Source: Patescibacteria group bacterium
GTDB taxonomy: Bacteria > Patescibacteriota > Patescibacteriia > UBA2591 > JAQUPP01
Length of the DNA: 64,000 bases
NCBI GenBank assembly: GCA_028716665.1
Contig: JAQUPP010000001.1
Span: 37,313-101,312 of the forward strand
Direction: 5' to 3'
Shown here: one piece after another, positions 11,914 to 29,802 of the stretch
Layout of the letters: the number at the start of each line of letters is the position of its first letter
Numbering within the stretch: the first letter of the stretch is position 1
Notes under the pieces: generated by a model
The model's input: only the letters and a program-made list of their open reading frames with translations
Told to the model about the DNA's origin: nothing
Database searches by the model: none
Program-made: the position numbers and the translations under genes

Positions 11914-13413
11914 TTATTCGAGAGAATAATTCGGTGGTTCTTTTGTAATAATAATATCGTGAGGGTGAGATTCGGTTTTGCCCGCCTGTGTGATTCTAAT
12001 GAAATCTGCTTTTTCGTGAAGTTCAGAAATATTTGCCGCGCCGACATATCCCATTCCACGTTTCAGTCCGCCCAAATATTGAAAAATTACTTGTTCCAAT
12101 TCTCCTTTGTAAGGTTTTAATCCTTCAACGCCTTCGGCAATAAGTTCTTTTTTTCCTGTATCCACTTGTCTATACCTTTCTCGACTGCCTTTGTTAACTT
12201 CCATTGCCCCGATAGAACCCATTCCTCTGTAGACTTTCCATTGTCTGCCATCTTTAAAAACTATTTCACCTGGCGCCTCTTTTGTTCCTGCCAGCATGCC
12301 GCCCATCATCACAGAACACGCACCTGCACCAATAGCGATAGGAATGTCTCCTGAATTATGCAACCCGCCGTCCGCGCAAACAGGAATATCAAACGCGCCA
12401 ATAGCCTTTGCGCATTTGTAAACAGCACTTACTTGAGGCGAGCCGATTCCCGCGATAACTCTTGTAGTGCAAATTGAACCCGGTCCCTGACCTACTTTTA
12501 CTCCGTCAGCACCCGCCTTGGCGAGTCGACAGGCCGATTCCGGTTCTGAGACATTACCGACTACAACATCAATTTTATAATTTCTTTTTATTTCTTTAAG
12601 TGTTTCAATAACTGATTTTGTATCTGCGTGCGCCGTACTGATTACCAACACATTAACTTTATTTTTTACCAATAAATCAATCCGTTCAAAATCATTCACG
12701 CCCACTGCCGCGGCCACGATTAACTGTCCATTTTTATCCACATTGCATCCGGTAGGATTTTTCATTATTATTCTTTGAACATCTTTAAAAACATACATCC
12801 CTGCGATTTTACCATTTTTATCCAACAACGGCAAAATCTTCTTTTTTGTTGCCATCATTATTTTATGCGCTTCTTTTAGAGAGGTCCCTTTTGGCGCCGT
12901 GATGATTTTTTTACTCATGACTTTTGCGACCGGAAGAGAAAAATCTTGGCAAAAATCAAAATCGGTCTTACTTAATATACCGATGAGTCGATTAGCTCTA
13001 TTAATAACAGGAAAGGTGCAGAAATCATATTTCTTTTCCTCTTTTTTCATGAGAATTTCCCTTACGGATTCATTTTCGTACGCGCAAATTGGTTCGTCTA
13101 TAAAGCCATTCAGATAATATTTTACCCTAGCCACTTCATCCGCTTGGTCTTTAGGAGAAAGATTTTTATGAATTACGCCAAGTCCGCCCAACAAAGCCAT
13201 TCCTATTGCCATACCGCTTTCTGTCACCGTATCCATGTCAGCGCTAACGAGAGGAATTTTTAAAAAAATATTTTTCGAAAATTTTGATTCAAGATTTACG
13301 TTGTCCGGCATAACTTCGGAATGACCCGATTTTAGGCGAACATCATCAAAAGTCAGCGCCAATCCCAGTGCTTCCATCTTCTCAAAAAATGCATCTTTTG
13401 GGAATTTTTTCAT
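11914..13413 (-). CDS. guaB: IMP dehydrogenase
   Basis: Catalytic loop [18 protein letters not shown] pair insert, 499 aa. Confidence 0.9.
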
Positions 13414-13451
13414 AAGTTTAATTTACTAAATCCTCAACGCTAATTTCAAGA

Positions 13452-13526
13452 ATCTTATTTTTGGTGGACCCGAGGGGAATCGAACCCCTTACTCTTCCAT
13501 GCCATGGAAGCGTGTTACCGGTATAC
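13452..13526 (-). tRNA. tRNA-Ala (GGC), CCA encoded
   Basis: Acceptor gggcccg with G3.U70, anticodon loop atGGCat, 3' ...tccacca. Confidence 0.85.
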
Positions 13527-13544
13527 CACGGGCCCATAAAATTA

Positions 13545-13638
13545 TTAATTAAAGTGCGGACGGAGGGATTCGAACCCTCGCAGGATTGCTCCCACATGCA
13601 CCTCAAGCATGCGCGTATACCAGTTCCGCCACGTCCGC
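13545..13638 (-). tRNA. tRNA-Leu (GAG), long variable arm
   Basis: Acceptor gcggacg/cgtccgc, anticodon stem catgc/gcatg with loop ttGAGgt, long variable arm, T-loop ttcgaat. Confidence 0.85.
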
Positions 13639-13640
13639 AA

Positions 13641-13910
13641 TTATTTTATCAATGTTTTTAAATATTCTTTACCACAACCAGATTTAAAATATTTTTCTCT
13701 TTGTCTCGCTTGATATCTAGAACCAACAAATTCTGTAAATATAATTTTAAAAGGGATATATCGTTTATTTGATTTAGTTTTTCCAATATTATGTTCTTTT
13801 AATCTTTTCTCCGGATTTTCTGACATCCCAACATAAATATAATTATATTTAATACTTTTTATAGCATAAACATAATAACTTTCCATAATTTTAAAATTGT
13901 AATATAACAA
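13641..13910 (-). CDS. small GIY-YIG nuclease family protein (YhbQ/UPF0213-like)
   Basis: YYVYAIKS...YIYVGMSENPEKRLKEHN matches the GIY-YIG core with conserved R, E and N. 89 aa; the real start may be the internal Met at residue 9. Confidence 0.7.
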   Translation of the reverse strand: MLYYNFKIMESYYVYAIKSIKYNYIYVGMSENPEKRLKEHNIGKTKSNKRYIPFKIIFTEFVGSRYQARQREKYFKSGCGKEYLKTLIK

Positions 13911-13966
13911 TTACATGCGCGTATACCAGTTCCGCCCTGCCTGCCGGCAGGCAGGCACGTCCGCCT
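13911..13966 (-). pseudogene. duplicated 5' fragment of tRNA-Leu (nt 1-31) with a 20-nt perfect palindrome inserted after position 9
   Basis: The revcomp reads gcggacgtg[cctgcctgccggcaggcagg]gcggaactggtatacgcgcatg. The 24 nt catgcgcgtataccagttccgcc are identical to 13607-13630. Together with the intact tRNA it flanks the GIY-YIG gene. Confidence 0.6.
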
Positions 13967-13976
13967 AAAATAACAA

Positions 13977-14321
13977 TTATTTTATTTCCTTTAATTTTTT
14001 TGAATGATCTTTTAAGAAATTCAATTTGGCTCTTCTGACTTTAAACTTTTTCACTATTTCTATTTTTGAAATCGTCGGTGAATACAAAGGATAAATTTTT
14101 TCCACGCCGATATTGTCAGCCGCTTTTCTGCTAACGGTAAAAGTGGCGCCTGCTGTATTTCCACCATGGCGAGAAATGACCATGCCTTCAAAAATTTGGA
14201 TTCTTTCTTTCATATTTCCTTTCGCATCCGGTTCTTTGATTTTTTGAAAAATTTTAATCATCATTCCCGGTTTAATGTCCGTAACGTTGGTTTCTTTTTT
14301 TTCTTTTTTTATATCTTCCAT
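13977..14321 (-). CDS. rplS: 50S ribosomal protein L19
   Basis: ...KIEIVKKFKVRRAKLNFLKD... L19 C-terminal signature, 114 aa. Confidence 0.85.
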   Translation of the reverse strand: MEDIKKEKKETNVTDIKPGMMIKIFQKIKEPDAKGNMKERIQIFEGMVISRHGGNTAGATFTVSRKAADNIGVEKIYPLYSPTISKIEIVKKFKVRRAKLNFLKDHSKKLKEIK

Positions 14322-14367
14322 ATTAAATTTTAATTTTGATTAATATATTAAGGCTAATAACATGTTT

Positions 14368-14402
14368 AGGAGAAGAGGCTCTAGGCAGGAGCCTCTTCTA
14401 AA
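14368..14402. terminator. bidirectional terminator hairpin
   Basis: agaagaggctc-taggcag-gagcctcttct. Confidence 0.55.
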
Positions 14403-14944
14403 ATAATTTTCTTTATTTTTTCAACAGTTTCTTCCAGCTTCCCTTCTTCATTGGTGATAACATAATCCCAGTTATCAAGGGTGGCCAATTCTTTTTGTGT
14501 TTCAGCCAAACGTTCTTGAATTACTTCTTCCGAATCTTGTCCGCGGCTGCGCAATCGCTTTTCCAAAATTTCAATTGATGGAGGAATAATGAAAATCACT
14601 TTTGCCTCCGGGAATTTAATTTTGATTGTCTTTGCGCCTTGGCAATCAATTTTAAAGAGAATTGCTTTATTCAACTGCATTAATTGCTCCACATCCTTTT
14701 TCTGCGGACCGTAATAATTACCGTAAACCAAAGCGTGTTCAATTAATTCGTCATTTTTTATCATTTGTTCAAATTTTTCTTCTGAAACAAAATGATAAGG
14801 ATGGCCCTCTGATTCGCCTTGTCTCATCGGACGCGTGGTGGTAGTAACTACCCAATTAAAATCAAGATTCTCTTTTTTAAGACCTTCAATCACACTGTCT
14901 TTGCCTGCTCCGGAAAGTCCGGAAATTACGAATAATTTACTCAT
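14381..14944 (-). CDS. gmk: guanylate kinase
   Basis: P-loop GLSGAGKDS, GMP-binding TTRPMRQGE...YHF, 187 aa. Confidence 0.9.
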   Translation of the reverse strand: MSKLFVISGLSGAGKDSVIEGLKKENLDFNWVVTTTTRPMRQGESEGHPYHFVSEEKFEQMIKNDELIEHALVYGNYYGPQKKDVEQLMQLNKAILFKIDCQGAKTIKIKFPEAKVIFIIPPSIEILEKRLRSRGQDSEEVIQERLAETQKELATLDNWDYVITNEEGKLEETVEKIKKIILEEAPA

Positions 14945-15707
14945 TTTTACCTCCCTGTCTGCCTGATAGGCAGACTTTTTTATTTAAAAAATCCTTTAAT
15001 TCTTTTGGCAAATCGCTTTTAAATTCTTGCCATTGATTATTTAGATCGTAAAAACCCAGATAACCGGCGTGAAGAAAAATTCTATCTAAATCGGTTTTTG
15101 CTTTGCTGTGCTGCTTGTCTCCGACAATCGGACAGCCGATTGATTGCAGATGAAGACGAATTTGATGCGTTCGACCGGTAAACGGCCTGAGTTTTAATAA
15201 AGTAAATTTTGGAAATTCTTGAACAACCTCGTATTCGGTTATCGCCGGCTTGGAAATTTTAATATTTTTTTTAGATTGAACAACGACTAATTTTCCTTTT
15301 TTTGTTCGGCCAATTGGTAATTCAATTGTTCCTTTTTTTTGCGAAGGCCGGCCGCAAACCAAAGCCAAATATTCTTTTTTTACCCGGCTATTTTTAAACT
15401 GATCAATAAAATATTCAAATGATTTTTGATTTCTGGCAATTATCATCAATCCGGAAACGTTTTGGTCCAAGCGATGAACAATCCCCGGTCTTTCACTCTC
15501 ATTAATATCTTTTATTTCAGGATAATTTTCAATTAACCAATTCGCTAAAGTATTTTCTTTTTGATGTTTGGTAGGATGCACCAATAATCCGCTCGGTTTT
15601 TCAATAATCAAATAATCCTTATCTTTAAAGATTATATTCGGTTTTAAAAAAAAGTCAACCCCCATACCAAACGGCGATATATTTTTAAAATGCGATGAAT
15701 TATTCAT
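14937..15707 (-). CDS. RluA-family pseudouridine synthase
   Basis: Catalytic motif HRLDQNVSGLMIIA and GRTHQIRLHL. Confidence 0.8.
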   Translation of the reverse strand: MNNSSHFKNISPFGMGVDFFLKPNIIFKDKDYLIIEKPSGLLVHPTKHQKENTLANWLIENYPEIKDINESERPGIVHRLDQNVSGLMIIARNQKSFEYFIDQFKNSRVKKEYLALVCGRPSQKKGTIELPIGRTKKGKLVVVQSKKNIKISKPAITEYEVVQEFPKFTLLKLRPFTGRTHQIRLHLQSIGCPIVGDKQHSKAKTDLDRIFLHAGYLGFYDLNNQWQEFKSDLPKELKDFLNKKVCLSGRQGGKNE

Positions 15708-27353: not shown

Positions 27354-27429
27354 TGGTGGGCACTAGAGGACTCGAACCTCTGACCTTCACAATGTCAATG
27401 TGACGCGCTACCAACTGCGCCAAGTGCCC
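27354..27429 (-). tRNA. tRNA-Val (GAC), CCA encoded
   Basis: Acceptor gggcact/agtgccc, anticodon stem tcaca/tgtga with loop ttGACat, T-loop ttcgagt, 3' ...cccacca. Confidence 0.85.
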
Positions 27430-27643
27430 CTCACATGAAAATTATTAGAAATATTTTGATTCTTTTTTAAATGTATATACGACCCAGAATATCTTTTAAG
27501 TATGTTTTTTATATTTTGGTGCCTTTTTTAGGAGCACCTGTTTTATACACAGACTAAATCAAATGGAAATTAATGTTTTATAAATTCTACTAATTCTTAA
27601 ACATATAATTTTCATGTGAGGGACCAAGTGCCCATTTAATATA

Positions 27644-27718
27644 TGGTGCGCGAGGAAGGAATCGAACCTTCAACCTCGTCTTTATCAGAGACGCGTTCTA
27701 CCATTGAACTACTCGCGC
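27644..27718 (-). tRNA. tRNA-Ile (GAT), CCA encoded
   Basis: Acceptor gcgcgag/ctcgcgc, anticodon loop ctGATaa, T-loop ttcgatt, 3' ...gcgcacca. Confidence 0.85.
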
Positions 27719-27843
27719 ATTGAATAATAAAGGGTTTTTACCCTGTGTTTGTTTCACTCACTCGGAAAAGCAAATTAATTTGCTTTTCTCTCGCTCGCTC
27801 ACAAATAAAATAATATAATATTTTAAGAATTAGTCAACCCCAT

Positions 27844-28158
27844 TTAATATCCTTGTTTGTGGCGTTTGATAATTTTTCTTTTTGATTTTAAAAAAGATTG
27901 TTCCAAATCAACGCCATAACGATTAGCCAAGGTCAATAAGCTGATTAAAATATCTCCCATTTCTTTGCCTAAATCAACTTTAATATTTTTTCTTTCTTTC
28001 TTGCCGGCTTGTTTTCTGATCATTTCCGCCATTTCACCAAGTTCTTCCATTAAAAATAAAATTTCCAGATGTTCGTCAACTGTTTGAGATTTTGTTTTCC
28101 AATCTTCGTCAACCCATTGCTGAGCTTTTTTTATTTCCATAATAAATAATTGTAACAA
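27844..28158 (-). CDS. MazG-like nucleotide pyrophosphohydrolase
   Basis: EExxE-type motif LMEELGEMAEMIRK, 104 aa. Confidence 0.7.
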   Translation of the reverse strand: MLQLFIMEIKKAQQWVDEDWKTKSQTVDEHLEILFLMEELGEMAEMIRKQAGKKERKNIKVDLGKEMGDILISLLTLANRYGVDLEQSFLKSKRKIIKRHKQGY

Positions 28159-28197
28159 AAAAACCAGTTAAGTCAACTGGTTTTCTTGCTCTAAAAA

Positions 28198-28218
28198 CGC
28201 AAATCAAAGCGGGTAAAC
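28198..28218. repeat. 3' half of the 16S processing stem (21-bp inverted repeat partner of 29845-29865)
   Basis: aaacgcaaatcaaagcgggta is the exact reverse complement of tacccgctttgatttgcgttt at 29845-29865, bracketing the 16S gene like an RNase III processing helix. Confidence 0.6.
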
Positions 28219-28276
28219 TAACCTTCGACCTTAATTTTTCTATTACTCGAAAGTAATAGAAAAAATATAAGTCCTC

Positions 28277-29802
<1,526 letters not shown>

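Follow-up and report, generated by a model that had tools for sequence, protein, structure and literature searches.

A minimal selfish, homing-like element probably occupies positions 13608–13964 of the 64-kb stretch of DNA analysed here (the window), as a member of a family of such elements residing within tRNA transcription units. The element apparently has not been described before and is found in tRNA genes of several bacterial phyla; a full-text literature search, with subscription-only papers outside its coverage, returned no published description of it. As we picture it, the element would consist of three parts: (i) a gene for a GIY-YIG protein of the Slx1/UPF0213 type of about 80 amino acids, lying a few nucleotides 5' of tRNA position +1 or, in a minority of cases, just 3' of the tRNA; (ii) a segment of the target tRNA gene (here nt 1–31) repeated in direct orientation, by which one intact, functional tRNA would always be left; and (iii) a palindrome of 20 bp (PAL), strongly conserved, which would interrupt the redundant tRNA copy only. 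The most economical reading of the sequence is that the GIY-YIG protein is a putative mobilising endonuclease and PAL its putative cleavage or recombination site, because the open reading frame (ORF) is the sole gene of the insert, the protein is under purifying selection, and the 20-mer is unchanged in most of the diverged loci.

Organisation of the Locus

Read along the minus strand, the locus runs from rplS through nt 1–9 of a tRNA-Leu copy, PAL (CCTGCCTGCCGGCAGGCAGG), nt 10–31 of the same copy, a 27-nt spacer and the 81-aa GIY-YIG ORF to the intact tRNA-Leu(GAG), which follows after 2 nt. The features are:

13977–14321, minus strand: rplS (ribosomal protein L19; Pfam PF01245), upstream flank
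13956–13964, minus strand: copy of tRNA-Leu(GAG) nt 1–9, GCGGACGTG, 100% identical to 13630–13638
13936–13955, no strand assigned: PAL, perfect 20-bp palindrome, CCTGCCTGCCGGCAGGCAGG, inserted cleanly at the tRNA nt 9/10 boundary
13914–13935, minus strand: copy of tRNA-Leu(GAG) nt 10–31 (D arm and 5' strand of the anticodon stem), exact repeat
13887–13913, minus strand: AT-rich 27-nt spacer from the tRNA fragment to the start codon, including a small hairpin (AATTGT-N6-ACAATT)
13641–13886, minus strand: GIY-YIG nuclease gene, 81 aa, of the Slx1/UPF0213 (YhbQ-like) type by Pfam PF01541, family profile and fold
13554–13638, minus strand: intact tRNA-Leu(GAG) (ARAGORN; Rfam tRNA, 57.7 bits), 2 nt past the ORF stop codon
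13608–13913, minus strand: inserted DNA in one notation, 306 bp, comprising spacer, ORF, 2 nt and tRNA nt 1–31
13462–13535, minus strand: tRNA-Ala(GGC), downstream flank, same tRNA cluster
14954–14973, no strand assigned (minus-strand sequence given): another GC-rich hairpin insertion of 20 nt resembling PAL, CTGCCTATCAGGCAGACAGG, where an RluA-like ORF has its 3' end, adjoining the gmk start

Much of this arrangement had been noticed in a sequence-only reading of the window, whose coordinates were 2–9 nt off. That reading rightly put an intact tRNA-Leu(GAG) on the minus strand, but its end at 13545 lies 9 nt too far, as ARAGORN delimits the gene to 13554–13638. The frame which it gave for a GIY-YIG ORF upstream of the tRNA (13641–13910) is indeed open, while comparison within the family moves the start to the ATG at 13886. 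A copy of tRNA-Leu nt 1–31 is present as proposed; it spans 13914–13964 instead of 13911–13966, and the identity extends to 31/31 tRNA positions and not merely to 24 nt. The perfect palindrome described as following tRNA position 9 falls exactly on the boundary of nt 9 and 10, and the junction postulated in the anticodon stem or loop agrees with the duplicated segment stopping at tRNA nt 31, in the anticodon stem.

Both parts of the copy are 100% identical to the intact gene, the exact repeats being of 9 nt (13630–13638 and 13956–13964) and of 23 nt (13608–13630 and 13914–13936), with a spacing of 306 nt. The copy begins exactly at tRNA +1, preceded by the original leader 3' of rplS, and PAL has entered it without duplication or deletion of target sequence. 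In 100 shuffles of the window that preserved dinucleotide composition, the tRNA repeat and the palindrome were both absent throughout, and the whole arrangement recurs with 100% identity in an NCBI metagenome-assembled genome (MAG) contig (JAQVAD010000004.1) and in one Logan assembly contig, possibly from the same sample. Two further direct repeats at the junctions were considered as an extended duplication and discarded: D5 (TAATTGTTAT(A/T)TTA) is of chance size in DNA of 25–35% GC, and D6 (ATAAAATAATTG), found at the end of both rplS and the ORF, was rejected because it encodes the family-conserved C-terminus LIK* as well as being of chance size.

Regarding expression, no promoter or terminator belonging to the GIY-YIG ORF itself was detected; a promoter-like match at 14004–13976 is no better than expected from shuffles, and no terminator-like sites were found in 13300–14500. 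PAL was likewise rejected as an intrinsic terminator, being followed by GCGGAACTGG and not by a U-tract, with no terminator-like site at hand. The rplS flank is the probable source of read-through or the probable tRNA promoter region.

Empty and Occupied Sites in Relatives

The proposed insertion into a tRNA-Leu locus, and the search for an empty site in relatives that had been suggested along with it, are borne out by two sister genomes whose flanks are 92.5–99.5% identical. In one of them (L004) the site is empty, rplS being followed directly by a tRNA-Leu(GAG) of the same sequence as in the window; the other (L003) is occupied by the same insertion as the window, at 97.9% identity. Relative to the empty site, both the latter and the window contain 326 bp of additional DNA, composed of the 306-bp segment and the 20-bp PAL, in which the 81-aa ORF is the only gene and no integrase is encoded. 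Between the window and the occupied relative the flanks are less alike than the insert (78.6% at the 3' end of gmk, 93.3% in rplS); the ORF differs by six changes, four of them synonymous, and the hairpin in the spacer has retained its stem with an altered loop.

Adjacency of rplS and tRNA-Leu(GAG) was found in 24 Patescibacteria species loci, with the insert present in L003 only and absent in 23; the insert-free order is the usual state. The comparison establishes the element as an insertion that is polymorphic among close relatives and younger than the split of the hosts, although the empty state of L004 could in principle reflect a precise loss. As had also been surmised, one complete tRNA is kept: the intact tRNA-Leu(GAG) is the same in empty and occupied alleles, which differ solely in the leader junction and the PAL-interrupted copy. 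A homing enzyme specific for the tRNA sequence would therefore be without immunity.

The GIY-YIG Protein

The assignment of the gene to the YhbQ type of GIY-YIG proteins holds. The protein matches PF01541 over residues 4–69 with 55 bits (cut-off 22.6; E = 1.1e-14), and both profile and fold are nearest to Slx1/UPF0213. The family profile matches UPF0213 EF2693 (1ywl) at 1.4e-6, 1zg2 at 8e-5, Slx1 at 1.3e-3 and, partially, I-TevI at 1.5e-3. An AlphaFold2 model (pLDDT 93.6) had Slx1 as its best Foldseek match (TMq 0.70); BH0048 was retrieved with probability 1.0, I-TevI with TMq 0.47–0.57 and UvrC with 0.54. No variation was seen among 45 family members in the catalytic residues Y7, Y18-V19-G20, R28, H32, N33 and E64, and the present clade possesses an invariant C-terminal SGxGK motif of its own.

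The protein is, thus, a bare catalytic domain of the Slx1/UPF0213 type, closer to that branch than to UvrC or I-TevI. Since the entire protein is catalytic domain, with no dedicated DNA-binding domain for a long asymmetric target, it is not a classical homing endonuclease equipped with such a domain; there is no obvious way in which 81 amino acids of this kind could read 20 bp or a tRNA gene, unless as an oligomer. A dN/dS of about 0.1 in the family points to purifying selection. Furthermore, the proteins group by tRNA class, with the nearest neighbour belonging to the same class in 63/72 cases (permutation p < 0.0005).

Architecture of the Element Family

Eighty metagenomic loci encoding homologues 52–65% identical to the window protein were sampled. 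In 71 of them, a tRNA gene on the same strand (Leu, Asn, Arg, Lys or Asp) lies within 400 nt and mostly abuts the GIY-YIG gene. The order 5' fragment, GIY-YIG gene, intact tRNA is found in about 58 loci, in most of which the gap measures −8 to +12 nt, and the order tRNA, GIY-YIG gene, 3' fragment in about 13. Of 968 fragment positions, 956 are identical to the adjacent tRNA. Among 42 distinct family loci, the duplication begins at tRNA +1 in 33, with only 0–3 nt shared upstream, and its length across the family ranges from 24 to 71 nt; the spacer between fragment and start codon is mostly 0–14 nt elsewhere in the family, compared with 27 nt in the window. Tandem identical units occur, as either re-invasion of the intact tRNA or unequal exchange might produce, and there are also decayed copies of the element without an intact tRNA. 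The distribution across phyla is patchy. At E <= 1e-10 the family profile matches 3,148 clusters (50% identity), the linkage with tRNA and PAL being known from the 80 sampled loci. The insert in the window is not a one-off footprint; its architecture is the canonical one of a large, multi-phylum family.

The Palindrome

The exact PAL 20-mer is present in 51/80 homologue loci and, allowing for at most four mismatches, in 73/80 (74/81 when the window is included); in these loci it invariably lies within the redundant tRNA copy. It remains unchanged in most loci whose proteins diverge by 35–48% from that of the window, and no position, the CCGG loop included, departs from the perfect 20-mer in lineages with an ORF dS of 0.27–0.88. 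Protein and palindrome are both under constraint. Exact copies occur in Patescibacteria and in one Ignavibacteriales MAG, i.e., in at least two phyla, while the window contains a single one. As DNA, PAL is predicted to form a hairpin of −8 kcal/mol with an 8-bp stem. It lies 8–50 nt from the ORF, on its 5' side in the common architecture and on its 3' side in the minority.

The 62 PAL sites that could be mapped are clean and concentrate at the junction of D-loop and D-stem (28/62) and within the D-loop (15/62); at least 11 different tRNA positions are involved, and the 9|10 position of the window is unique among the mapped sites. Within lineages of the element the position is largely constant, with all Arg elements having PAL at nt 21 and Asn elements at nt 20–22; therefore, many copies have been inherited with the cassette and not newly inserted. 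On the other side, insertion is recurrent, because a decayed and a perfect PAL coexist next to each other at the same site of one fragment (L087, L124). Two loci (L136, L122) contain full-length tRNA copies with PAL and no GIY-YIG gene between them and the intact copy. When the DNA from one PAL to the next is excised in silico, three loci (L097, L136, L143) regain a second tRNA, and in the clearest of these (L097, L143) the restored tRNA is a second, different allele.

IMG/VR contigs added 35 stretches with PAL, most of them GC-rich, in which it lies at stem/loop junctions of unrelated hairpins; only three of these stretches are tRNA-like, and in 34 the surroundings lack a family member, so that the GIY-YIG gene is not a strict companion of PAL. 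An artefact of base composition was rejected as the cause, given that two control palindromes of the same composition produced no matches. No recurrent gene neighbouring the viral-contig PALs was identified, the ORF maps being noisy at 60–68% GC. Taken together, PAL is a separate module that is recurrently inserted, at positions varying by tRNA, and that occurs also outside this gene family.

The second hairpin of the window, 1 kb away (14954–14973), is a precise 20-nt indel relative to L004, has a predicted stability of −8.4 kcal/mol (z = −6.3), and agrees with the PAL half-site at 9/10 positions of its second half, GGCAGACAGG. The idea that it is a recurrent variant of PAL was discarded, as neither other loci, at up to three mismatches, nor viral contigs yielded a match, and it is uncertain whether this hairpin is linked to the element. 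In the locus L173, two matches to this hairpin (at most two mismatches) lie inside an apparently coding repeat.

Proposed Mechanism and Alternative Explanations

In the homing-like scheme, the nuclease would break a tRNA gene, probably recognising DNA structure or junctions in the manner of Slx1, and repair would copy the cassette from the occupied allele, homology arms being provided by the tRNA-derived repeat on the left and the intact tRNA on the right. Such arms would permit homing into the same tRNA gene of diverged genomes; the tRNA-derived repeat would preserve the tRNA gene and probably target it, too. The duplication starting from tRNA +1 may trace back to a founding target duplication via a staggered break, spanning from the base of the acceptor stem to the D or anticodon arm. 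PAL, the probable candidate site of the nuclease, would be a symmetric sequence bound or cut by a nuclease oligomer and re-inserted repeatedly into the dispensable tRNA copy. Expression of the ORF might rely on read-through from the tRNA promoter, with RNase P cutting at tRNA +1 and, thereby, freeing the mRNA. Several points count against the scheme: the bare 81-aa domain that would have to read 20 bp or a tRNA gene, the missing immunity of occupied alleles to a tRNA-specific enzyme, the PAL copies of viral contigs away from the family, the unique 9|10 position in the window, the conceivable loss in L004, and the clean insertion of a 20-bp palindrome without a ligase or recombinase, which it leaves unexplained.

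A possible, if somewhat doubtful, alternative overlaps with this scheme and differs in what moves and how. Here PAL itself would chiefly be what moves, as a hairpin "nano-transposon" of 20 bp; acting in trans, the structure-specific GIY-YIG protein would carry it into stem/loop junctions of hairpin-forming DNA. It would be visible mainly in redundant copies since insertions into an essential tRNA would be lethal, and the tRNA duplication around the ORF would be a plain target-site duplication from staggered structure-specific nicks and not a homology arm. The clean insertions at at least 11 tRNA positions, mostly loop/stem junctions, speak for it, as do the decayed copies beside perfect ones at the same site, the PAL-bearing full-length tRNA copies without an intervening GIY-YIG gene, the hairpin junctions occupied in viral contigs (35 stretches against none for the control palindromes), the second hairpin insertion in the window and the Slx1-like fold. 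It is weakened by the near-constant PAL position within element lineages, by the very small number of copies in a genome region (a single exact PAL over 64 kb here) and by the scarcity of family members near the viral-contig PALs. Moreover, no GIY-YIG enzyme is known to join DNA. We consider it improbable that PAL works on RNA, forming a hairpin for the stabilisation or processing of an mRNA within the tRNA operon, the GIY-YIG gene having been moved by general recombination and PAL being no DNA site of the nuclease. Its stable 8-bp stem, its place close to the ORF on either side depending on the architecture, as befits an end-protecting hairpin, and the lack of a detectable promoter or terminator for the ORF would fit; however, a structural hairpin would allow compensatory changes, whereas all 20 positions are identical at dS values of up to 0.88, and PAL, which has no U-tract, occurs in tRNA copies away from any ORF (L136, L122) and in unrelated viral contexts.

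tRNA genes are classic integration sites, with integrated elements flanked by partial tRNA repeats, and group I introns reside in the tRNA-Leu of some bacteria; a remnant of an integrase island, prophage or group I intron at the tRNA gene, or else a chance or assembly artefact, is nevertheless hardly conceivable here. The whole difference from the empty site amounts to 326 bp with a single 81-aa ORF and neither a tyrosine nor a serine recombinase, and the 5' and not the 3' part of the tRNA is duplicated. Group I/II introns and ribozymes were rejected, as no Rfam model matched at the gathering threshold or at E <= 1 and the downstream tRNA is already complete. Searches against PHROG and PADLOC gave no matches, and tblastn found no homologues in collections of cultured phages (50,697 phage records) and plasmids. 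Chance and misassembly are countered by the absence of repeat and palindrome from the shuffles and by the recurrence of the arrangement in many independent assemblies. Finally, the GIY-YIG protein might be a vertically inherited housekeeping nuclease of the host, co-transcribed with the tRNA and active, for example, in repair or processing at highly transcribed tRNA loci, with the fragments as by-products of recombination between tRNA genes. A 2006 phylogenomic survey regarded the Slx1-like/UPF0213 group as ancestral, mostly vertically inherited repair proteins (PMC1564403), and the strong purifying selection as well as the clustering by tRNA type would agree with such a role. Against it, and making it very unlikely in our estimation, stand the sister genomes that differ by exactly the insert, an element far better conserved than its flanks and missing from 23/24 related rplS/tRNA-Leu loci, the tandem identical units, the decayed copies lacking an intact tRNA, and the patchy cross-phylum spread of a family with one 20-mer common to at least two phyla.

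Relation to Known Systems

Comparable with the homing-like element proposed here are the Seg proteins, the products of free-standing GIY-YIG homing endonuclease genes of T-even phages, among which SegB is located in the tRNA gene cluster of T4. Seg genes are polymorphic between relatives, and their spread is attributed to the repair of breaks, in which the gene is copied together with flanking DNA. Common to both systems are intron-less, polymorphic GIY-YIG genes inserted between or next to genes, which in the case of SegB are tRNA genes. Seg enzymes comprise about 200–250 amino acids with a separate DNA-binding domain; in contrast, the present element encodes an 81-aa bare domain, is accompanied by a target duplication and a conserved palindrome, neither of which is known from Seg, and is bacterial-chromosomal, without a match in the phage records. 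In size, domain content, profile match (1.4e-6, 8e-5) and fold, the protein resembles the UPF0213 members YhbQ, EF2693 and BH0048; the apparent difference lies in the tie to tRNA genes, tRNA fragments and PAL that is seen at the loci of the present clade.

With tRNA-targeting integrase islands and prophages, the element has in common the insertion in a tRNA gene, the partial direct repeat and the intact tRNA that is kept. Unlike these, it has no integrase, measures only 326 bp, usually duplicates the tRNA from the 5' end at +1 instead of the 3' end, over 24–71 nt, and bears an extra 20-bp palindrome in the redundant copy. A short GC-rich palindrome combined with one small nuclease or transposase gene, the absence of target duplication and a preference for hairpin-forming DNA are reminiscent of REP/BIME-RAYT (TnpA-REP), IS200/IS605 and yeast mitochondrial GC clusters. 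The enzyme here is, however, GIY-YIG and not HUH Y1, and no HUH (Y1) transposase is associated with it. REP sequences are species-specific, imperfect and present in hundreds of copies per genome, whereas at least two phyla have PAL in common as a perfect 20-mer, and next to the gene it occurs only once or a few times.

The GIY-YIG restriction enzymes Eco29kI, Cfr42I and Hpy188I read short palindromic sites as oligomers and, like the present protein, lack a separate DNA-binding domain; by analogy, they provide a precedent for a palindrome as a GIY-YIG site. They consist of about 170–220 amino acids, recognise 5–6 bp and are paired with a methyltransferase, none of which is true of the element here. 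In Penelope-like retroelements with a GIY-YIG domain, nicking leads to unusually long target duplications of variable length; these elements are eukaryotic and depend on a reverse transcriptase, while the present element has neither a reverse transcriptase nor a ribozyme.

If the homing-like reading is true, a very compact and widespread selfish element would join the bacterial mobilome, part of the "housekeeping" Slx1/UPF0213 group would have to be reassigned to a selfish lifestyle, and the rescue-copy architecture would constitute a natural analogue of engineered cleave-and-rescue drives. Should the 81-aa protein truly read a 20-bp site, it would rank among the smallest sequence-specific nucleases and be a candidate tool. 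In a bolder version, which we put forward with considerable reservation, the roughly 80-aa Slx1-like GIY-YIG protein and the cross-phylum palindrome would form a new class of mobile DNA: PAL would be the smallest known transposable unit, which a structure-specific nuclease would put in cleanly, with no duplication of the target, at stem/loop junctions of DNA able to form cloverleaves or hairpins. The gene would spread by cutting a tRNA gene in two and bringing along or rebuilding an intact copy, as a natural "cleave-and-rescue" system of which L097 and L143 would be the clearest cases.

The element shows how conserved, highly transcribed and structured tRNA genes can be exploited without being destroyed. 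It also explains recurrent artefacts in MAG annotation, namely tRNA pseudo-fragments and over-long GIY-YIG gene calls; 24 of the 106 long calls translate the palindrome, as LPAGRQ, PACRQA or CLPAGR.

Organisation of the Element

The locus holds a small mobile insertion at a tRNA gene, of which one intact copy is kept. The sequence-only reading had described a tRNA-Leu gene, a GIY-YIG ORF, a tRNA fragment and a palindrome; this arrangement is correct, apart from minor coordinate errors. The tRNA gene was placed properly except for its end, which is at 13554 rather than 13545; the ORF stands, with its likely start codon at 13886; and the direct tRNA duplication is real, comprising 31 nt instead of 24 nt.

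Features of the element and its flanks in the window
14321-13977, minus: rplS, upstream flank
12 nt, minus: leader between rplS and the copy of tRNA-Leu nt 1-9
13964-13956, minus: copy of tRNA-Leu nt 1-9, GCGGACGTG, 100% identical to the intact gene
13955-13936: perfect 20-nt palindrome, CCTGCCTGCCGGCAGGCAGG, a clean insertion between tRNA nt 9 and 10
13935-13914, minus: copy of tRNA-Leu nt 10-31, 100% identical to the intact gene
27 nt, minus: AT-rich spacer between the copy of nt 10-31 and the ORF
13886 (ATG) to 13641 (stop), minus: 81-aa ORF with GIY-YIG domain (PF01541, E = 1.1e-14)
13638-13554, minus: intact tRNA-Leu(GAG), 2 nt past the ORF stop
next, minus: tRNA-Ala(GGC)

The copy and the intact gene share exact repeats of 23 nt and 9 nt, 306 nt apart. 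Neither the tRNA repeat nor the palindrome recurs in the 64-kb window or occurs in 100 shuffles of it, and no promoter or terminator of the ORF's own was detected at the locus.

Empty Site and Age of the Insertion

Scanning species-representative genomes with the L19 protein retrieved two close relatives, and the comparison for an empty site proposed by the earlier reading found one empty and one occupied locus. In L004 (L19 94% identical), rplS, the leader and an identical intact tRNA-Leu are present, without ORF, tRNA fragment or palindrome. The related locus L003 (L19 96% identical) carries the whole arrangement, with the palindrome at the same position as in the window. L003 and L004 are mutual closest relatives (flanks 92.5-99.5% identical), the window being more distant. 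The 326-bp elements of the window and L003 share 97.9% identity, with 7 differences, 6 of them in the ORF (4 synonymous); identity in the flanks is 78.6% for the adjacent gmk 3' end and 93.3% for rplS. The conserved leader and tRNA-Leu itself bound the transferred tract, and the spacer 3' of tRNA-Leu is the same in L003 and L004 and differs from that of the window.

Among 80 Patescibacteria-dominated loci retrieved, tRNA-Leu(GAG) lies just downstream of rplS in 24, and only L003 has a GIY-YIG gene in between. Since the other 23 lack it, the empty state is ancestral. The element is a young insertion, having entered at least one of the three lineages after their split; an empty locus produced by precise loss in L004 is the less likely alternative.

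The same tRNA cluster shows another difference. In the window, guaB (IMP dehydrogenase, 499 aa; 11914-13413) sits between tRNA-Ala(GGC) and tRNA-Val(TAC), unlike L003 (1322-1354) and L004 (4550-4581), where the tRNAs Leu, Ala, Val and Phe are contiguous; this is a second rearrangement or insertion. Elsewhere (27354-29800), a 16S rRNA gene (28278-29800, minus) is followed by tRNA-Ile(GAT) and tRNA-Val(GAC). No 23S rRNA was detected across the 64-kb window, and the rRNA genes therefore appear unlinked.

A Recurrent Architecture

The architecture recurs across the family. Searched with the family profile, a set of 1.84 billion representative proteins yielded 3,148 clusters at E <= 1e-10, and homologues of 77-81 aa occur in MAGs named Patescibacteria, Bacteroidota, Ignavibacteria-type and 'Chlorobi'. 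In a sample of 80 metagenomic loci whose homologues are 52-65% identical to the window protein, 71 have a tRNA on the same strand no more than 400 nt away, usually 0-17 nt past the GIY-YIG stop codon or intact 11-90 nt upstream. These tRNAs are mostly tRNA-Leu, with all five anticodons, but also Asn(GTT), Arg(CCT/CCG), Lys(CTT) and Asp. The common order (~58 cases), which is that of the window, is 5' tRNA fragment, GIY-YIG gene, intact tRNA; a minority (~13 cases) has intact tRNA, GIY-YIG gene, 3' tRNA fragment.

Left of the palindrome, fragments differ from the neighbouring tRNA at only 3 of 554 nt, and to its right at 9 of 414 nt. The fragment starts at tRNA +1 in 33 of 42 distinct loci, with 0-3 upstream nt in common; its end is at nt 24-44, with a median of 31 (nt 71 in two cases), and mostly 0-14 nt separate it from the ATG. 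With such near-identical fragments and short spacers, the non-tRNA part of the element is essentially just the ORF. The proteins group by tRNA class (nearest neighbour of the same class in 63 of 72; permutation p < 0.0005), and lineages thus keep one tRNA species and switch rarely. Tandem units of fragment, palindrome and GIY-YIG gene occur as identical copies in the metagenomic loci L118, L128 and L107, and those of L119 and an Ignavibacteriales MAG show differences of a few nt; they are expected if the intact tRNA is re-invaded or if the repeats undergo unequal exchange.

Many database calls of the family (e.g., P0003, P0043, P0057, P0147 and P0240) overshoot the true length by 15-60 aa, since gene prediction runs on through tRNA fragment and palindrome, the latter being translated as LPAGRQ, PACRQA or CLPAGR in 24 of 106 calls of at least 95 aa; the over-long calls are a systematic annotation artefact. 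In an Anditalea sp. locus (GCA_035461405.1; L201, 1740-1830), the 3' tRNA fragment that comes after an intact GIY-YIG gene is decayed and bears an expanded variant of the palindrome, CCTGCCTGCCAAGGCACGCAGGCAGG. With no intact tRNA within 1.5 kb of the gene, it looks like an orphaned or decaying copy.

The Palindrome

Of the 80 loci, 51 contain the window's 20-mer unchanged; at up to 4 mismatches, it is present in 74 of 81 loci including the window (62 perfect and 34 decayed sites). Without exception it lies within a redundant tRNA copy adjoining the GIY-YIG gene, as a clean insertion of 20 bp. When 62 sites are mapped onto the tRNA structure, 28 fall at the junction of D-loop and 3' D-stem (21|22), 15 in the D-loop after A14/A15, 5 at the junction of anticodon loop and 3' stem, 3 at that of 5' anticodon stem and loop, and 11 elsewhere (variable arm, T arm, 7|8, 9|10), the window's position 9|10 being unique.

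The palindrome is under constraint, as is the ORF. It is still perfect in lineages with ORF synonymous divergence of 0.27-0.88, at which identity of neutral 20-mers is almost never expected; the exact sequence is shared by Patescibacteria (window, L003) and an Ignavibacteriales MAG, and the copy in a Zambryskibacteria MAG differs at one position. Decayed and perfect copies stand within one fragment, adjacent at the same junction in the metagenomic loci L087 and L124 and at different junctions in L097 and L156. Perfect copies are thus repeatedly re-supplied, insertion of the palindrome is recurrent, and the palindrome is no passive footprint.

An exact-match scan also found the palindrome in 35 stretches of IMG/VR viral contigs (L163-L197); there were no matches to either of two control palindromes with its base composition. 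Only L194 has the classic tRNA and GIY-YIG arrangement. In the phage contigs L187 (2239-2330) and L164 (around 8616), a tRNA-Met-like sequence has the palindrome at, or adjacent to, its variable region; the former is called by ARAGORN as a 92-nt tRNA, which might be tolerated or even functional, and the latter, whose left flank is similar, receives no tRNA call. No family member is detectable near the palindrome in the remaining stretches (contigs of 54-68% GC). In several of these it lies at the stem/loop junction of another hairpin (L183, L185, L190, L191), in others between 7-14-nt direct repeats (L165, L171, L181) or inside heptamer-repeat arrays (L163, L165, L186, L192).

The GIY-YIG Protein

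Purifying selection on the protein is strong (median dN/dS 0.10, 33 pairs); the catalytic residues are invariant, and a C-terminal SGxGK motif is specific to the clade. The confident AlphaFold2 model (pLDDT 93.6) comes closest in structure to the nuclease domain of Slx1 (TMq 0.70) and to BH0048, a UPF0213 protein, with I-TevI and UvrC farther away, and the sequence profile agrees with this ranking. Slx1 is a structure-specific endonuclease cutting at branch and stem junctions (PMC1564403), and an Slx1-like fold would fit an enzyme favouring the stem/loop junctions that extruded tRNA-gene DNA or hairpin DNA offers.

Proposed Mechanism and Alternatives

The mechanism that we favour, and consider rather probable as a whole, starts with a break made by the GIY-YIG protein, whose repair would copy the cassette into empty tRNA genes, the tRNA-derived repeat and the intact tRNA serving as portable homology arms. 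The duplication from +1 would be the trace of a staggered, structure-guided founding cut, and the palindrome the symmetric site of an oligomeric nuclease. By splitting the tRNA repeat (9 + 22 nt in the window; two palindromes in the 71-nt repeat of L156), it would also make loss of the element through recombination between the repeats less likely. Transcription reading through from the tRNA promoter would express the ORF, its mRNA being freed by RNase P.

Some loci hint at how the element moves. Removing, in silico, all DNA from one palindrome to the next gives back a second tRNA in L097, L136 and L143. In L097, the 5' fragment (anticodon stem CACGA) and the 3' fragment downstream of the intact tRNA (TCGTG) are halves of one tRNA, and the intact tRNA that they enclose differs in its stem (CAGGA/TCCTG). 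There, a unit of palindrome, GIY-YIG gene, tRNA and palindrome splits one tRNA and supplies another; the window-type structure could have arisen from it if the two 3' parts recombined.

The IMG/VR contexts weaken a strict one-gene, one-site view, and there is some chance, albeit a minor one, that the palindrome is an independently transposing 20-bp unit; that it acts as an RNA hairpin is improbable. It is also conceivable, if unlikely, that a 20-bp palindrome transposes by targeting DNA structure and that this goes together with a natural cleave-and-rescue replacement of the tRNA. For the protein, encoded in an insertion that L004 lacks, a housekeeping role is very unlikely, and an integrase-island or intron remnant is scarcely credible.

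Relation to Known Systems

The element works most like free-standing homing endonuclease genes, with T4 SegB, located in a tRNA cluster, as the nearest analogy; its protein, however, lacks their dedicated DNA-binding domain and belongs to the Slx1/UPF0213 branch. The likeness to REP/RAYT systems is limited to the combination of a palindrome and a nuclease gene, and that to tRNA-targeting islands to the preservation of the tRNA. We know of no described family with a target duplication starting at tRNA +1 or with such a highly conserved 20-bp palindrome, and the element may be regarded as a kind of selfish nuclease-gene element with these two added features. The full-text literature searched, in which coverage is incomplete and a prior description possible, held no description of the element or palindrome. 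According to one paper, the genes that Patescibacteria seem to have exported horizontally include GIY-YIG genes (PMC12455944).

A Second Hairpin

Relative to L004, the window contains a precise 20-nt GC-rich hairpin insertion at 14954-14973 (minus strand CTGCCTATCAGGCAGACAGG; stem GTCTGCCT/AGGCAGAC), at the 3' end of an RluA-like ORF just before the gmk start, which shifts the frame and lengthens the ORF by ~9 codons (...KKVCLSGRQGGKNE*). One half matches the palindrome half-site at 9 of 10 positions, and the hairpin may be an old or variant palindrome. Pattern searches found no copies beyond this one and a hairpin much like it, CCTGTCTGACTGATGGCAGAC (plus strand of the window's hairpin, CCTGTCTGCCTGATAGGCAGAC), which adjoins the GIY-YIG element of the metagenomic locus L108 (2130-2150) and may point to a second kind of hairpin linked with these elements.
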